Shown piece after piece: positions 42,520 to 50,698 of a stretch of DNA of 64,000 nucleotides. Under the pieces are notes generated by a model. The model made no database searches. It worked only from the letters and a program-made list of their open reading frames with translations, and was not told the origin of the DNA. How positions within the stretch are numbered: position 1 is the first letter of the stretch; every line of letters begins with the position of its first letter. The stretch lies in assembly GCF_053078305.1 (NCBI RefSeq), contig NZ_CP166879.1; one strand, given 5' to 3'. A program made the translations under genes and the position numbers.

Positions 42520-44964
42520 TTACACCTTTTCAACCTGAACAAGGTTTGTATGTGACGGATTCCCCTTAGCGAGAGGAGACGGACGTTGAGTGGTCAGTAC
42601 GTTAATACAACCACCCTTATCGACACGTTTTGCATCCGGGTCATACCAGGCACCTTCACCCAGTGCGACCACACCCGGCATCATTCGTGGCGTCACTTTC
42701 GCCTCAATATGAACCTCACCACGATCGTTAAAGATCCTGACTTTATCGCCGTTGTGGATACCGCGTTTTTGGGCATCAAGCGGGTTGATCCACATTTCCT
42801 GACGGCAAGCCGCTTTCAGCACATCAACGTTGCCGTAAGTTGAGTGAACGCGAGATTTATAGTGGAAACCCGTAAGCTGCAGCGGATACTGTTTGTTCAG
42901 CGGATCCTGATAACTTTCAAAGCCCGGCGTGTAGATCGGCAGTGGATCGATCACATCGCCTTCTGGCAATTCCCAGGTAGCGGCAATGTCAGCCAGCGCC
43001 TGCGAATAAATCTCAATTTTGCCCGATGGCGTAGTCAGTGGGTTTGCCTGCGGATCTTCACGGAAGGCTTTATAAGCAACGTGATGCCCTTGTGGGTCGC
43101 GCTTTTTAAAGATCCCCTGCTTGCGGAACTCTTCAAACGTTGGCAGTTCAGGAATCGCTTCCCGCGACTGGGCATACAGATGCCGCATCCACTCTTCCTG
43201 TGTACGACCTTCAGTAAACTGTTGCTCAACGCCAAGACGTTTTGCCAGTTCGCTGGTCATCTCATAGATGGTCTTACATTCAAAGCGCGGTTTAATCACC
43301 TGATCGTTGAAAATCACGTAAGACATATTCCCGCAGGATGCATCCAGCGCAAAGTCCATCTGTTCGGAAGCGGTGCAGTCAGGCAGCAGGATGTCAGCAT
43401 ATTTCGCCGATGAAGTCATGTGGCAGTCGATAACCACAATCAGCTCGCACTTCTTATCATCCTGGAGGATTTCATGGGTACGGTTGATTTCAGAATGCTG
43501 GTTAATCAGGCAGTTACCGGCATAGTTCCAGATCATTTTGATCGGCACATCCAGCTTATCTTTCCCGCGCACACCATCACGCAGCGCCGTCATTTCCGGG
43601 CCACGTTCAATGGCATCGGTCCACATAAACATCGAAATGCTGGTCTGGATCGGGTTTTCCAAGGTCGGCATACGGACAAACGGTAAGCTGTATGAACCTT
43701 CACGCGCGCCGCTGTTCCCTCCATTAATACCAACGTTACCGGTCAGAATCGCCAGCATCGAGATAGCGCGAGTCGCGATTTCGCCGTTGGCGTGGCGCTG
43801 CGGCCCCCATCCCTGGCTGATAAACGCCGGTTTGGTACTGCCGATTTCACGAGCCAGTTTGATGATTTTGTCTGCCGGAACACCGGTGATTTGCGAGGCC
43901 CATTCCGGTGTTTTAGCCACGCCATCTGGCCCTTCACCCAGAATATAAGCTTTATAGTGGCCATTTTTCGGCGCACTGGCTGGCAGGGTTTTCTCGTCAT
44001 AGCCAACGCAATATTTATCGAGGAATGCCTGATCCACCAGGTTTTCGGTGATCATGACATACGCCAGACCGTTAACCAGTGCGGCATCTGTTCCTGGACG
44101 AATAGGGATCCACTCATCTTCGCGCCCGGCACCGGTGTCGGTATAGCGCGGATCGATGATGATCATGCGGGCATTAGATTTCTGGCGTGCCTGTTCAAGA
44201 TAGTAAGTCACCCCACCGCCACTCATTCGCGTTTCGCCAGGGTTATTACCAAACAGCACTACCAGCTTACTGTTTTCGATATCCGACGGGCTGTTGCCAT
44301 CTGCCCAGCCGCCGTAGGTATAGTTCAGACCTTCCGCAATTTGCGCGGAAGAGTAGTCACCGTAATGGTTCAGATAACCGCCGCAGCAGTTCATCAGCCG
44401 CGCGACCAGGGTATTTCCCGGCGGCCAGGAGCGGGTCATGGTGCCACCCAGCGTACCGGTGCCATAGTTAAGATAGATGGATTCGTTGCCGTACTCTTTG
44501 ATCAGGCGCTGCATATTGGTCGCGATGATGTCGTAGGCTTCTTCCCAGCTAATGCGCTCGAATTTGCCTTCACCGCGCGCCCCGACTCGTTTCATCGGAT
44601 ATTTCAGGCGGTCCGGATTATAGACACGGCGACGCATGGAACGCCCACGCAAACAGGCGCGAACCTGGTGCAGGCCGTCGTAATTGTCATCGCCGGTATT
44701 GTCCGTTTCGACATATTTGATTTCACCGTCCACGACGTGCATACGTAGCGGGCAGCGACTACCACAGTTAACTGTACAGGCGCTCCAGATAACCTTTTCG
44801 TCTGATTTTGTTGGAATGGCGCTATCGACAGCGTGCGCAATCCGACTAAAAGGTAATGTTAATGCGCTGCTGGCCATTGCCAGGCCGCCGATCGCTGTCG
44901 TTTTTACCAAACCACGGCGACTCACCTCAGCAGCCAATACCGCATCAGGGATTTTCGTTTTCAT
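42520..44964 (-). CDS. dmsA: DMSO reductase catalytic subunit (molybdopterin, Tat-exported)
   Basis: 814-aa ORF; twin-arginine signal (EVSRRGLVKT); molybdopterin oxidoreductase family. Confidence 0.97.
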   Translation of the reverse strand: MKTKIPDAVLAAEVSRRGLVKTTAIGGLAMASSALTLPFSRIAHAVDSAIPTKSDEKVIWSACTVNCGSRCPLRMHVVDGEIKYVETDNTGDDNYDGLHQVRACLRGRSMRRRVYNPDRLKYPMKRVGARGEGKFERISWEEAYDIIATNMQRLIKEYGNESIYLNYGTGTLGGTMTRSWPPGNTLVARLMNCCGGYLNHYGDYSSAQIAEGLNYTYGGWADGNSPSDIENSKLVVLFGNNPGETRMSGGGVTYYLEQARQKSNARMIIIDPRYTDTGAGREDEWIPIRPGTDAALVNGLAYVMITENLVDQAFLDKYCVGYDEKTLPASAPKNGHYKAYILGEGPDGVAKTPEWASQITGVPADKIIKLAREIGSTKPAFISQGWGPQRHANGEIATRAISMLAILTGNVGINGGNSGAREGSYSLPFVRMPTLENPIQTSISMFMWTDAIERGPEMTALRDGVRGKDKLDVPIKMIWNYAGNCLINQHSEINRTHEILQDDKKCELIVVIDCHMTSSAKYADILLPDCTASEQMDFALDASCGNMSYVIFNDQVIKPRFECKTIYEMTSELAKRLGVEQQFTEGRTQEEWMRHLYAQSREAIPELPTFEEFRKQGIFKKRDPQGHHVAYKAFREDPQANPLTTPSGKIEIYSQALADIAATWELPEGDVIDPLPIYTPGFESYQDPLNKQYPLQLTGFHYKSRVHSTYGNVDVLKAACRQEMWINPLDAQKRGIHNGDKVRIFNDRGEVHIEAKVTPRMMPGVVALGEGAWYDPDAKRVDKGGCINVLTTQRPSPLAKGNPSHTNLVQVEKV

Positions 44965-45148: not shown

Positions 45149-45191
45149 AGGGAGACAAAAAAAGCGCCCGCAGGAGGTTTAACGCTACTTA

Positions 45192-45253
45192 CTCCCCTTG
45201 ATGATTTGCTTATTTTTCAATGAGTAAATCAAAACAAGGGGAGCAAATAAGCA
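45192..45253. repeat. Interleaved inverted repeats immediately 3' of int: candidate prophage attL core / Int binding region
   Basis: CTCCCCTTG (45192-45200) and TGCTTATTT (45207-45215) are each repeated in inverted form as CAAGGGGAG (45235-45243) and AAATAAGCA (45245-45253). Confidence 0.4.
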
Positions 45254-45263
45254 CAAGTTACAA

Positions 45264-46256
45264 CTAATCGATGGACAGTTTATGGACACTTTCAGCCAGC
45301 GGATTAAAGCTGATTGCATCCTGTAAAAAGTCCGGCGAAAAATGCGCATACGTCATCGTTTGTTGAATCGTGGCATGGCCCAGGATTCGTTGTAGCGTAA
45401 CGATATTTCCGCCATTCATCATGAAATGTGTAGCGAATGTATGACGCATGACATGGGTGGCCTGCCCTTTCGGTAAGTCCGGCTTCACCTCCTGAAGGAT
45501 CTCCCGAAATCTGAGGTAATCAGCCTGGTACAACAATCCGGTTCTGCGGGTTTTAATTAACGCAAGTACCGCATCAGAAACGGGAACGGCGCGAGATTTT
45601 CCGTTCTTGGTGTTAAAGAACATCACGCGGTTACCTACAATATGTTCCCCACGTAAACCAGCTGCTTCACCCCACCTTGCCCCCGTGGAAAGACACAGAA
45701 TGGCAACACGCCGCGCATCTCCATCGAGTCGTTCAAGCAGTCGTTCAATCTCCTCATCTGAAAGAAAGGCCATCTCTGTGTTCCTGACTTTCAGCTTACG
45801 TATTCCCCGAACCGGGTTTTCGTTATGGAACACCTCACCCTCAATCAGCGAGCTGAACATTGCAGACAAGGCACACAAATCGCGGTTAATGCTGGAAGGC
45901 ATTAACCCGGCCTGTAATTTGTCGGACCGGTACCCGAGCATAAATTTTCGCGTCATCTGACTGGCACGAGGATCACCCATCTCACGGTTTATCTTTTCCA
46001 GTCTGACCCTGTAGGTATCCCCGTAATCCTGGTTACGACCATCAAGCAACCACCAGGCCTCTATCAGTTCGGATAACCGACGCTGATCTGCTGGCTTAGC
46101 CTGCCATGGCTTATCATGAAAATTCTGCAAAACATACCTTTCAAACTCCTGCGCCTTTGACTTCAGGGTAAAAATCTTACGAATCCGCTTTCCTTCCGTC
46201 CCTTGTGGCCTTACATCAACCTTATAACGTCCGTCTTTGAGTTGCTTAATCGACAT
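45264..46256 (-). CDS. int: P2-type tyrosine integrase
   Basis: 330 aa from MSIKQLKDGRYKVDVRP; strong similarity to remembered P2 Int (LSTGARWGEAA, HxxRHTFATHF, ILGHATIQQTMTYAHF); ATG with GGAGGGG Shine-Dalgarno. Confidence 0.9.
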   Translation of the reverse strand: MSIKQLKDGRYKVDVRPQGTEGKRIRKIFTLKSKAQEFERYVLQNFHDKPWQAKPADQRRLSELIEAWWLLDGRNQDYGDTYRVRLEKINREMGDPRASQMTRKFMLGYRSDKLQAGLMPSSINRDLCALSAMFSSLIEGEVFHNENPVRGIRKLKVRNTEMAFLSDEEIERLLERLDGDARRVAILCLSTGARWGEAAGLRGEHIVGNRVMFFNTKNGKSRAVPVSDAVLALIKTRRTGLLYQADYLRFREILQEVKPDLPKGQATHVMRHTFATHFMMNGGNIVTLQRILGHATIQQTMTYAHFSPDFLQDAISFNPLAESVHKLSID

Positions 46257-46325
46257 GATTAGCCCCTCCAACGGATAAATTAACCAAACACTCCCTGCGG
46301 GATGAAACCCGCTCGATGTGTAACG

Positions 46326-46673
46326 TCAGCCAGCATTGCGGCCTGATCGGGATGATTTTTGGGTAACGTCGATTGAAGCCAGATCGCCCTCCGACTGAGA
46401 AGATCCATCAAGAGAGAGAGCCGGGGCAATTTGACCCCCAGCTTCAAACGTTTCATCAGTTGTTAACCAAAGTGCATATTTTTTAAAACGTAAATTTTTT
46501 GTGATCTTTAATAAGATCTCACTTCCGATTCCATCTTGCCTTCCCGTTTCGTAATACCTCTGCGTATTAACAGGAATCCCTGTAAGCTCAAAGAATTGCT
46601 TCCTTGTAAGCCTCTCACTTTTCCGGATCATCAAGATTTTTTCACCGATACTTATTGACAGTGTCGAATTCAT
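46326..46673 (-). CDS. P2 C-type immunity repressor (HTH)
   Basis: 115 aa from MNSTLSISIGEKILMIRKSERLTRKQ; resembles remembered P2 C (EKIVLMRKSEYLSRQQLADLTG, GQIAPAL); upstream of int on the same strand. Confidence 0.8.
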   Translation of the reverse strand: MNSTLSISIGEKILMIRKSERLTRKQFFELTGIPVNTQRYYETGRQDGIGSEILLKITKNLRFKKYALWLTTDETFEAGGQIAPALSLDGSSQSEGDLASIDVTQKSSRSGRNAG

Positions 46674-46774
46674 ACCACTAAAATCCTCGCAAAAGTGTCG
46701 TAATTTCGACATTAAACAAACCAAAACAAACCTTCATAAGGTGCAATAGGCGCACCTGTGCGAGAGGATAACAA

Positions 46775-47299
46775 ATGCGGGACTTCATTGCCGATAAAGA
46801 GTTATCTGACACCGATCACACAACTGGAGCGGCGTACATCAACGCCGATACCAGTCAACAAGAAGCAACAGATAACAACGACGAACAAAAGCCACAGCGC
46901 ACATATAAAAAAGGGGCAACCCTGCGGCTGGATGGCCCAATAGCCGGGCTTTGCTCACTTGAAAAAGGGGCCGCCTACATCGGATTAACAAAAACAGCAT
47001 TACGCGCAGCTCTCCAGCGTAACCAGATGCCAGGGCATAAAACCCGCTCAAACCCTGAAGATGAGAATTCGGATGGTGTTTGGTGGTTTAACGTCAGAGA
47101 GTGGGACAAGCTGGCCGACGAACTCCCGGAATGTGAGCCACCAGAATGGCACAACTGGAAAAGCTACTGGACATACGACCGCCAGAAAAGAAAGTTTACC
47201 CCGGCTGATAAGGAAGATTGCCAGACCGTCAATGGAAAACGGGTTTACAAAGGCAGAAAGTCAAAGCTGGAACAGAGCCAGGATGTAAACGAACGGTGA
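46775..47299 (+). CDS. Cox-like excisionase/early regulator with N- and C-terminal extensions; start uncertain
   Basis: The central segment ATLRLDGPI...AAYIGLTKTALRAAL...DGVWWFNVREWD aligns by eye with P2 Cox; first gene of the rightward early operon, divergent from C. Confidence 0.55.
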   Translation: MRDFIADKELSDTDHTTGAAYINADTSQQEATDNNDEQKPQRTYKKGATLRLDGPIAGLCSLEKGAAYIGLTKTALRAALQRNQMPGHKTRSNPEDENSDGVWWFNVREWDKLADELPECEPPEWHNWKSYWTYDRQKRKFTPADKEDCQTVNGKRVYKGRKSKLEQSQDVNER

Positions 47300-47305
47300 T
47301 GAACG

Positions 47306-47701
47306 ATGAGCGGCAAAAATAAGTCAGAAAAAAACACAACCGTCCTTAAGCAGTTAAGCCTCCTGAAAGAGGAACACAAGGACGCCACGATACTGATGCA
47401 TCTGGAAGGCTCACCGAAAATAACAATCACAACAACCTATAGCGAGTTACACAAAGAGCTTGAAGGATTAATTAACTTTTGTTCAAAGCTAAAAGCGAAT
47501 GAAAACATTGATGACCTGATACTTAAACCAGAAGCAGAGTTCGGGCACTTTTGCGAAAGTAGAGAAAATGGATGCATCGGAATAATGCTATACGCAACCC
47601 GCGGAATAATGATTAATCTGCCCGTTGAGCAGGCTGTGGATATATTCGGAGAAATGGCACTTAATAAAACCACTATTTACAAAAGAAAAATGCCGGAGTA
47701 A
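47306..47701 (+). CDS. Hypothetical phage early protein (lower-GC moron candidate)
   Basis: 131-aa ORF starting 7 nt after the cox-like stop; GC ~40% by hand count against ~55-60% in the rest of the prophage. Confidence 0.5.
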   Translation: MSGKNKSEKNTTVLKQLSLLKEEHKDATILMHLEGSPKITITTTYSELHKELEGLINFCSKLKANENIDDLILKPEAEFGHFCESRENGCIGIMLYATRGIMINLPVEQAVDIFGEMALNKTTIYKRKMPE

Positions 47702-48016: not shown

Positions 48017-48355
48017 ATGACACAGCGACGCAGCTTCCGCACTGGCGCAGAACGCCACGCAGCCCGTTTCTCAACCAGCGCATCACGCAGCAACTCGCAC
48101 TACAGCCTGCAGGAAACGCACGCCACACCTGACGGGCATCCGGTTAAACAAACCGGTAAACACACCTGGCTGATTAATGATGCCGGAATTGTCATTCACC
48201 GGGGCGCACGCAACCCGATTACCGGAAATACCTGTTACTCCCTGACTCGCGGAGATGAGCAGTTCGGGCAGGATTTCACCCTGCACGAAGCATTAAGAAC
48301 GGCAGACCGGTTAATCAGCGGTCGCAGTTTTCAGCACCCGGAACATCGCCGCTGA
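48017..48355 (+). CDS. Hypothetical phage early protein
   Basis: 112-aa ORF in the early operon; no recognisable motif. Confidence 0.45.
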   Translation: MTQRRSFRTGAERHAARFSTSASRSNSHYSLQETHATPDGHPVKQTGKHTWLINDAGIVIHRGARNPITGNTCYSLTRGDEQFGQDFTLHEALRTADRLISGRSFQHPEHRR

Positions 48356-50470: not shown

Positions 50471-50698
50471 ATGGCAAACCGCAAACAACAGCGCGTCCGC
50501 GCTGAGCGTCTTCACATCCGCACCGAAATCAACCGCAGACTCTGGCGCGCATCACGCGTCGCGCAAATCATGTACATCAACATGCTGCATGAACACGCAC
50601 ACGCGCTGTCAGACCGTTACTGTGCCGCCGTCTTCAGCTACCTGGCGGATGACCTGGCAGAGCTGCAGGACCTTATCAACCAGCAACACCACCACTAA
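50471..50698 (+). CDS. Hypothetical phage protein
   Basis: 75-aa ORF with AAGGGG Shine-Dalgarno; basic N-terminus, His-rich C-terminus. Confidence 0.45.
   Translation: MANRKQQRVRAERLHIRTEINRRLWRASRVAQIMYINMLHEHAHALSDRYCAAVFSYLADDLAELQDLINQQHHH

Follow-up and report, generated by a model that had tools for sequence, protein, structure and literature searches.

A predicted P2-type C/cox switch in a dmsA-adjacent Escherichia coli prophage, with a candidate C operator at the early promoter and candidate Cox boxes in the C-cox spacer

The half-sites recognized by the C repressors of P2-type phages are separated by 22 bp in P2, 26 bp in P2 Hy dis, and 34 bp in WPhi, and they flank the -10 hexamer of the early promoter Pe in P2 and WPhi and the -35 hexamer in P2 Hy dis (PMC1904268). 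The operators of all three phages have been described as non-palindromic direct repeats, and the P2 C dimer, which is symmetric, reaches across two successive major grooves, with its recognition-helix positions at residues 31 to 39 (PMC2995052). In the P2 switch, O1 and O2 carry the half-site TTTAGAT(C/G) at that 22-bp spacing, Pe and Pc are face to face, and Cox boxes are present both across Pc and at attP. In the annotated P2 record, the C start codon is covered by the Pe -35, O1 falls between the -35 and the -10, O2 comes just past the -10, and Pc is nearer cox. The boxes bound by P2 Cox are 10 to 11 bp apart and overlap Pc, with a second set at attP, and have the consensus TTAAA(G/C)NC(A/C) (PMC3936717). 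The C operator of WPhi consists of two 10-bp direct half-sites, O1 and O2, of sequence TATTGGTGAC, which lie 34 bp apart from center to center and flank the Pe -10 (PMC1904268).

Two further systems resemble the locus described here. In phage 186, Apl, one of the recombination directionality factors that also act as switch regulators, binds direct repeats one helical turn apart that are located between the early promoters and at att (PMC7498355); 186 differs in having a CI-type repressor and CII, whereas a Cox homologue, not Apl, is encoded here. PhiECO5 of E. coli UTI89, tentatively assigned to P2-type immunity class IX in 2011, is a P2-type prophage with the order int-C-cox at roughly the same chromosomal position (PMC3448106). 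It was reported as a new immunity class with a spacer that could not be aligned to that of P2, and no operators were defined for it (Nilsson et al. 2011, PMC3448106). The prophage examined here may belong to the PhiECO5 lineage, as presumed from the UTI89 coordinates alone.

The window, by which we mean the whole stretch of 64,000 nucleotides that was analyzed, is part of an E. coli chromosome with a P2-like prophage integrated beside dmsA. Prophages of this dmsA-adjacent family are common in E. coli and are also found in ST131 strains, for example EC958. The genes at the left end of the prophage and its neighbor are the following.

42520 to 44964, minus strand: dmsA
45264 to 46256, minus strand: P2-type tyrosine integrase gene (RefSeq CDS; Pfam Int_N and Phage_integrase)
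46326 to 46673, minus strand: C immunity repressor gene, 115 aa, P2 C family with a helix-turn-helix (HTH), ATG at 46673 to 46671
46775 to 47299, plus strand: Cox-like gene, 174 aa, ATG at 46775

The genes are thus ordered int-C-cox, and the cox-like gene is the first of the early operon. In the RefSeq annotation of the near-identical strain N51, the int, C, and cox genes have the same ends as in the window, and downstream lies a full P2-family prophage with a replication endonuclease, Ogr/Delta, portal, terminase, GPO scaffold, and P2-family capsid.

The initial annotation had singled out the 101 bp between the C start and the cox-like ATG (46674 to 46774), an interval with which the N51 RefSeq annotation agrees, and had named a tandem AAACAAACC pair and a GGTGC-N7-GCACC dyad as plausible operators of the immunity switch; a direct sequence check found both motifs as it had given them, in sequence and in coordinates. 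We agree that this is a C/cox switch, but the word "divergent" that was applied to it is probably inexact, because the -35 of the predicted Pe lies inside the C ORF, which would make the two promoters face to face (convergent). At a rough probability of 0.6, we read the locus from sequence comparison as a P2-type face-to-face switch in which O1 and a palindromic O2 make up the C operator, the tandem repeat belongs to a Cox operator, and the dyad is fortuitous.

The repressor shares 41% identity with P2 C, with homology across the HTH domain and the GQIAPAL motif, and ~45% with the P2-family C of WPhi. It matches the "C protein" structures 2XCJ/2L49 in the PDB (E=4.6e-18) and phrog_147 (E=3e-27), and by these sequence measures it is a true P2 C homologue. 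The premise of the initial annotation that P2-type C repressors bind repeated half-sites, placed around Pe, is borne out by the literature (PMC1904268) and applies to a protein of this family. The start MNSTLS is supported by one relative, L017, in which a stop codon lies directly upstream. The Cox-like protein scores 27.4 bits against Pfam Phage_Cox (cut-off, 27.5) over residues 59 to 130 and also matches phrog_23196 and phrog_1831; RefSeq names it "Cox family DNA-binding protein," and its gene position agrees. It is only 21% identical to P2 Cox and is longer (174 versus 91 aa), the extensions being a variable acidic N-terminal stretch of ~45 to 58 aa and a conserved Trp-rich and basic C-terminal part (PPEWHNWKSYWTYDRQKRKF...). 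Long versions of 182 to 192 aa are found in Salmonella and Serratia, and a PDB sequence search with the Cox-like protein gave no match.

The early promoter and the candidate C operator were located around the C start.

46655 to 46684, plus strand: predicted Pe, with -35 TTGACA at 46655 to 46660, an 18-bp spacer, and -10 TAAAAT at 46679 to 46684; start at ~46691
46662 to 46669, plus strand: O1, candidate C half-site TGTCGAAT, between the Pe -35 and -10 and overlapping C codons 2 to 4
46696 to 46711, both strands: candidate O2, a 16-bp palindrome TGTCGTAATTTCGACA made of two inverted O1 half-sites, at ~+5 to +21 of Pe

The predicted Pe fits the consensus at 11 of 12 positions and was the sole strong promoter match in the switch region in a consensus scan; it was also the top-scoring promoter, at the same position, in 25/25 aligned switch regions. 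The position of its -35, at or within the C start, is the one annotated for P2 and seen in WPhi. Directly after this -35 begins the first copy of a direct repeat, AGTGTCG (46660 to 46666), and the second copy, 34 bp away (46694 to 46700), forms the left arm of the palindrome, which has a single mismatched pair. Among 5,000 dinucleotide-preserving shuffles, a 7-bp direct repeat appeared in 574 and an O2-like palindrome in 196, and AGTGTCG was not enriched across the 64-kb window. By statistics alone the direct repeat and the palindrome are weak, and the case for them rests on comparison.

The comparison set comprised 41 related loci, all of them in E. coli or E. albertii, which represent 26 distinct switch regions and were drawn mainly from E. 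coli RefSeq and IMG/VR, and to these we added three type-A loci from Salmonella and Serratia, found as close C homologues by exact-protein look-ups and distinct from one another, for a total of 29. A Cox-anchored scan of species-representative genomes contributed just one extra locus, in E. albertii. The 29 distinct switch regions fall into three immunity types with three different C recognition helices.

Type A (the window): half-site TGTCGAA, recognition helix VNTQRYYET
Type B (EC958 and others; the common ST131 type): half-site AGATA[AC][ACT]C, recognition helix LA[TA][IV]RNYES (for example, LATIRNYES)
Type C (U13A and others): half-site TTCACC, recognition helix VGTIGNYES

With regard to PhiECO5, the window carries type A, as against the type B that is common in ST131. 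All three types have a half-site directly next to the conserved TTGACA and, 32 to 34 bp downstream, a palindrome built from that half-site. The half-sites do not vary within a type, in contrast to the bases immediately before O2 and the center of the palindrome, which vary freely. O1 is TGTCGAAT in each of five type-A loci, which come from E. coli, Salmonella, and Serratia, and in the other types it is replaced by AGATAACC/AGATACTC or by TTCACC, in step with the recognition helix of C. The O2 arms TGTCG/CGACA are likewise fixed in the type-A loci, where the center and the upstream spacer vary and one Salmonella locus (L046) has a perfect palindrome, TGTCGAATATTCGACA; types B and C have palindromes of their own half-sites at the O2 position, and 6 of the 8 O2 pairs are changed on both sides across types. 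Thus, O1 and O2 behave as an immunity operator would, being fixed within a type and changing with the C recognition helix, although the relatives share descent and comprise only three immunity types, so that this co-variation amounts to few independent events. Part of the conservation of O1 could also stem from coding, since it overlaps C codons 2 to 4.

An exchange between otherwise identical prophages can be seen in IMGVR_UViG_3300018479_000124 (L010). Over int, cox, and the downstream region its identity to the window is ~100%, and the exception is a cassette of ~330 bp (~46400 to 46733). Here the identity falls to ~50%, and the cassette, which covers the N-terminal DNA-binding domain of C, Pe, and the half-sites, carries a repressor domain and half-sites of type C. 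We give even odds to the more specific reading that a palindrome of inverted half-sites 11 to 12 bp apart at the Pe start, together with a lone direct half-site in the promoter spacer, forms the operator of a symmetric C dimer and that immunity is exchanged as a ~330-bp cassette while the Cox operator stays constant. In that case the operator would be a variant of the P2 type, and the unit exchanged between otherwise identical prophages would consist of the C DNA-binding domain, Pe, and the three half-sites.

In its placement, the candidate operator agrees with those of the P2-type phages. O1 lies in the Pe spacer by the -35 and O2 past the -10, 34 bp apart in the window and 32 to 34 bp apart in relatives; like known P2-type operators, the pair flanks the Pe -10 with a separation in the range of 22 to 34 bp, and it changes with the recognition helix. 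The one departure is that P2-type operators consist of non-palindromic direct repeats only, whereas O2 is palindromic in every type, which is a difference of architecture and not of likely mechanism. The arms of O2 are 11 to 12 bp apart from center to center, a spacing that, by analogy, fits the symmetric P2 C dimer. The locus shares with P2 the int-C-cox order, the overlap of the Pe -35 with the C start, and half-sites that flank the -10, and it differs from P2 in the 34-bp rather than 22-bp separation, in the palindromic O2, and in its candidate Cox box core, [AG]CAA[AG]. With WPhi it shares the TTGACA -35 at the C start and a half-site in the promoter spacer with another approximately three helical turns downstream; the half-site itself is different (TGTCGAAT), and the distal site is palindromic here versus a single direct copy in the O2 of WPhi. 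These comparisons suggest that O1 (TGTCGAAT) and the palindromic O2 around Pe are likely the C operator, and a better candidate than the repeats that had been flagged. O1 itself lies outside the flagged interval, within the C ORF.

Salmonella phage SEN5 (L042) was considered as a member of the same class and rejected: the N-terminal domain of its C is 63% identical, but its direct repeats have another sequence, TCTACCAT, at a distance of 33 bp, which places it in a separate class. Each of these repeats is embedded in a GGTA-N5/8-TACC inverted repeat (positions 656 to 720 of L042), and the annotated C start of SEN5 seems to lie ~11 codons too far upstream. This comparison points to palindromic features in P2-family operators outside the dmsA prophages as well.

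The tandem repeat between C and cox is followed by further, weaker units in the same phase.

46714 to 46722 and 46724 to 46732, plus strand: tandem repeat AAACAAACC-A-AAACAAACC, candidate Cox boxes 1 and 2, with cores ACAAA at 46716 to 46720 and 46726 to 46730
46734 to 46753, plus strand: degenerate candidate boxes 3 and 4 in 10-bp phase, TCATAAGGTG and CAATAGGCGC (TCACAAGGCG and CGACAAGCGC in relatives)

The repeat is more than chance, as a tandem run of at least 9 at an offset of 6 to 12 was found in only 17 of 5,000 dinucleotide-preserving shuffles of the 101 bp; AAACAAACC with at most one mismatch shows no enrichment across the 64 kb (23 observed versus 19.6 expected). It is kept in all three immunity types, and in L010, where it lies at the right edge of the exchanged cassette, it is still 16/19 identical, so the repeat does not track immunity. 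Most relatives have AAACAAACCA, AAACAAACCA, TCACAAGGCG, and CGACAAGCGC in 10-bp phase and hence four in-phase [AG]CAA[AG] cores, and in Salmonella and Serratia the [AG]CAA[AG] cores stay while the flanking bases change. In the lineage of the window, boxes 3 and 4 read ATAAG and ATAGG, and just two switch boxes match [AG]CAA[AG]. The count is therefore two exact and two degenerate boxes, with a fifth only if an out-of-phase 10-mer is admitted, compared to at least six per site in P2. The resemblance of these boxes to the P2 cox-box consensus is loose; only TTAAACAAA at 46712 to 46720 is near it (8/9), and relatives do not have the TT of this sequence. Such a mismatch is expected, since the two Cox proteins are only 21% identical. 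In prophages of the OZ392464 type the boxes are altered, yet no clear change is seen in the recognition helix of Cox.

A second array of the same kind was found in the att arm, beside the integrase gene.

~45163 to 45176: apparent att core (host/prophage junction), near AAAGCGCCCGCAGG, upstream of dmsA
45234 to 45257, plus strand: second phased [AG]CAA[AG] array, candidate Cox (excisionase) site in the att arm, with cores at 45234, 45243, and 45253
45271 to 45288, plus strand: Int arm-type direct repeats, ATGGACA twice with an 11-bp period, inside the int 3' end and kept in relatives

The junction appears to lie at the position given because related prophages start to diverge there. The annotated P' arm Int sites of P2 are two copies of TGTGGACA in the equivalent place, nearly the same sequence as the ATGGACA repeats here. 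The annotated P2 Cox site is just core-proximal to them, and the att-arm array of the window sits, like that site, between the att core and the Int arm repeats. We scanned both strands of the 64-kb window for at least three [AG]CAA[AG] cores at 9- to 11-bp spacing, for which block shuffles predict 0.1 arrays per 64 kb, and the window holds exactly one, at 45234/45243/45253; the motif was defined post hoc, after both regions had been inspected, which makes this result supportive and not decisive. The same att-arm array is present in six relatives (L002, L003, L006, L044, L045, and L047), and the relatives, those from Serratia and Salmonella among them, have arrays of this kind nowhere but in the C-cox spacer and at this att position. 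The locus resembles P2 in having one phased direct-repeat array between the operator and cox and a second between the att core and the Int arm repeats. Taken together, the sequence comparisons suggest that the tandem repeat is probably a real regulatory site, and we lean toward the reading that it represents Cox boxes over or near Pc.

If this reading is correct, a C dimer would bind the half-site TGTCGAAT at O1 in the Pe spacer and at O2, where two inverted copies lie 34 bp (~three helical turns) downstream, and occupancy of O1 and O2 would block Pe and hold cox and the early operon off. The Cox-like protein would bind the 10-bp-phased [AG]CAA[AG] array from 46714 to ~46753, in which the tandem repeat supplies the two best boxes. 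As in P2, it would polymerize on the phased boxes and shut off Pc, and it would use the att-arm array at 45234 to 45257 to direct excision. The GGTGC-N7-GCACC dyad would have no function as a dyad. Read in this way, the locus is an ordinary member of the well-studied P2-type switches with modest twists: its distal site is palindromic, immunity is exchanged in the manner of a cassette, and Cox is unusually long.

The position of Pc bears on the first of the alternatives. The consensus scan found no minus-strand promoter, and a position weight matrix scan for Pc gave three weak, mutually inconsistent candidates.

-10 at 46711 to 46716, minus strand: weak Pc candidate TTATGA-17-TTTAAT
C-cox spacer, minus strand: weak Pc candidate TTGTTT-16-GAAATT
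Overlapping the cox Shine-Dalgarno with its -10, minus strand: weak Pc candidate, conserved TCGGCA-18-TATCCT, with a WPhi-like long overlap

The long overlap arrangement has been described for WPhi (PMC1904263). Wherever the promoter is placed, Pc must overlap or read through the box array, since its transcript has to start to the right of the C Shine-Dalgarno at 46685 to 46688 (~46690). An unlikely alternative is that the repeat has been conserved as part of Pc, its reverse complement supplying TTGTTT hexamers that resemble a -35 or else the promoter spacer, or as an unstructured A/C-rich leader that aids ribosome loading on the cox mRNA. Two of the weak minus-strand candidates do use the repeat in such a way, as the spacer (TTATGA-17-TTTAAT) or as the -35 (TTGTTT-16-GAAATT), and in the predicted fold of the Pe leader the repeat is single stranded between two hairpins. 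Neither role would explain the in-phase att-arm array at the position of the P2 Cox site or the retention in Salmonella and Serratia of the [AG]CAA[AG] cores with changed flanks, and a third 10-bp unit, as found in L032, would wreck a fixed promoter spacer. A promoter or leader role is not exclusive of Cox binding over Pc, with which it is compatible.

Distinctly less probable is the possibility that the palindrome at 46696 to 46711 is an RNA hairpin and not a repressor site, acting as a 5' stabilizer of the early transcript or as a C-leader structure that pairs alternatively with O1 at the C start codon. The palindrome does fold as a hairpin at the 5' end of the predicted Pe transcript, and the Pe leader, whose fold comprises the operator palindrome and a window-specific stem, is modestly more stable than shuffles (z=-2.2). 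The both-sided changes across types in 6/8 pairs would also suit a hairpin, and several type-B variants (GATTATC) would be G-U wobbles in minus-strand RNA. However, the third, direct half-site by the -35 changes along with the arms, the arm pair of L011 is non-complementary, and the geometry is as in the WPhi operator. In the SCU-172 and OZ392464 types, O1 differs from the arms of O2 (AACC versus ACTC), which would make for poor alternative pairing, while both variants still fit one degenerate half-site. The fold of the minus-strand leader is no better than that of shuffles (z=0.04), and a permissive Rfam search over 46200 to 47400 found no credible RNA family. Neither a promoter or leader role for the repeat nor a hairpin role for the palindrome explains the third co-varying half-site or the att-arm array.

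Least probable is the proposal of the initial annotation that the tandem AAACAAACC repeat, with or without the dyad, is the C operator: P2-type C proteins do bind direct repeats and this one is non-random and lies between C and cox, but it is retained in three immunity types, each with a recognition helix of its own (VNTQRYYET, LATIRNYES, and VGTIGNYES), it is located at ~+23 to +41 from the predicted Pe start and flanks neither the -10 nor the -35, its 10-bp period is like that of Cox/RDF boxes and unlike the 22, 26, or 34 bp seen in known C operators, the dyad is no better than chance and unconserved, and a better candidate exists that co-varies with C. In position, in spacing within 22 to 34 bp, and in immunity specificity alike, the flagged repeats thus depart from P2-type C operators, and it is at the least highly likely that they are not the C operator; of the earlier claim, what stands is that the repeat is probably a regulatory site, and what falls is its assignment to the repressor. 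No IHF consensus match was seen in the repeat by inspection. Bending by A-tracts was also considered, and by inspection the A-tracts recur every ~5 bp and would not sum to a bend.

The dyad overlaps candidate boxes 3 to 5.

46739 to 46757: dyad (A)GGTGC-N7-GCACC(T), with GGTGC at 46740 to 46744 and GCACC at 46752 to 46756

Its arms extend to 6 bp (AGGTGC/GCACCT). Dyads with arms of at least 6 and a spacer of 3 to 10 occurred in 450 of 5,000 shuffles of the 101 bp, and the dyad is therefore not above chance. It is also lineage specific: most relatives have GGCGCGACAAGCGCACC or GGCACGACAAACGCACC, with a left arm of GGCGC or GGCAC, and no compensating change was found among them in the right arm. 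RNAalifold at the dyad showed no covariation and just an invariant 4-bp GCGC/GCGC stem. The dyad is probably fortuitous and without function as such, and the suggestion that it is an operator was not borne out.

For P2-like prophages more generally, a conspicuous tandem repeat between C and cox is not to be assumed to be the immunity operator. Telling the immunity elements, which form three interchangeable cassettes, from the Cox elements helps to predict superinfection immunity, how inducible a prophage is, and the swapping of cassettes. As for the recognition of DNA by P2-family repressors, the palindromic distal site offers a small, testable clue and, if the variant operator outlined above is real, the prophage family would offer a tractable system for asking how symmetric P2-family dimers read "non-palindromic" direct repeats (PMC2995052).

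Several minor observations were made along the way. The C-terminal ~35 aa of C (46326 to 46440; GQIAPALSLDGS.QSEGD...TQKS.RS.RNAG) form a longer tail than that of P2 C, which is reported to be disordered and dispensable (PMC2995052), and they are kept in all immunity types. A mosaic boundary between prophages falls within the C gene, and across the prophage family the immunity types occur in differing combinations with variants of the right-hand (cox-side) module. In IMGVR_UViG_2541047944_000005 (L032), ~70 to 100 bp upstream of cox, there are three tandem copies of AAACAAACCA versus two, an expansion by exactly one helical turn (the 10-bp unit). A second close AAACAAACC pair lies inside the DUF4761 ORF at 48017 to 48355, with one copy at 48146 and AAACACACC at 48158 (48146 to 48166, plus strand), 12 bp apart; this pair may have arisen by chance within coding sequence or may be another binding site.

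Farther into the early region, a 75-aa ORF (50471 to 50698, plus strand) matches the Pfam "Derepression protein family" (PF25738) at 30.6 bits, and its counterpart in N51 is named "derepression protein" in RefSeq. This family includes the P4 epsilon-type antirepressors that act on P2 C. That a P2-like prophage carries a derepression protein may be relevant to the cross-induction of co-resident prophages.
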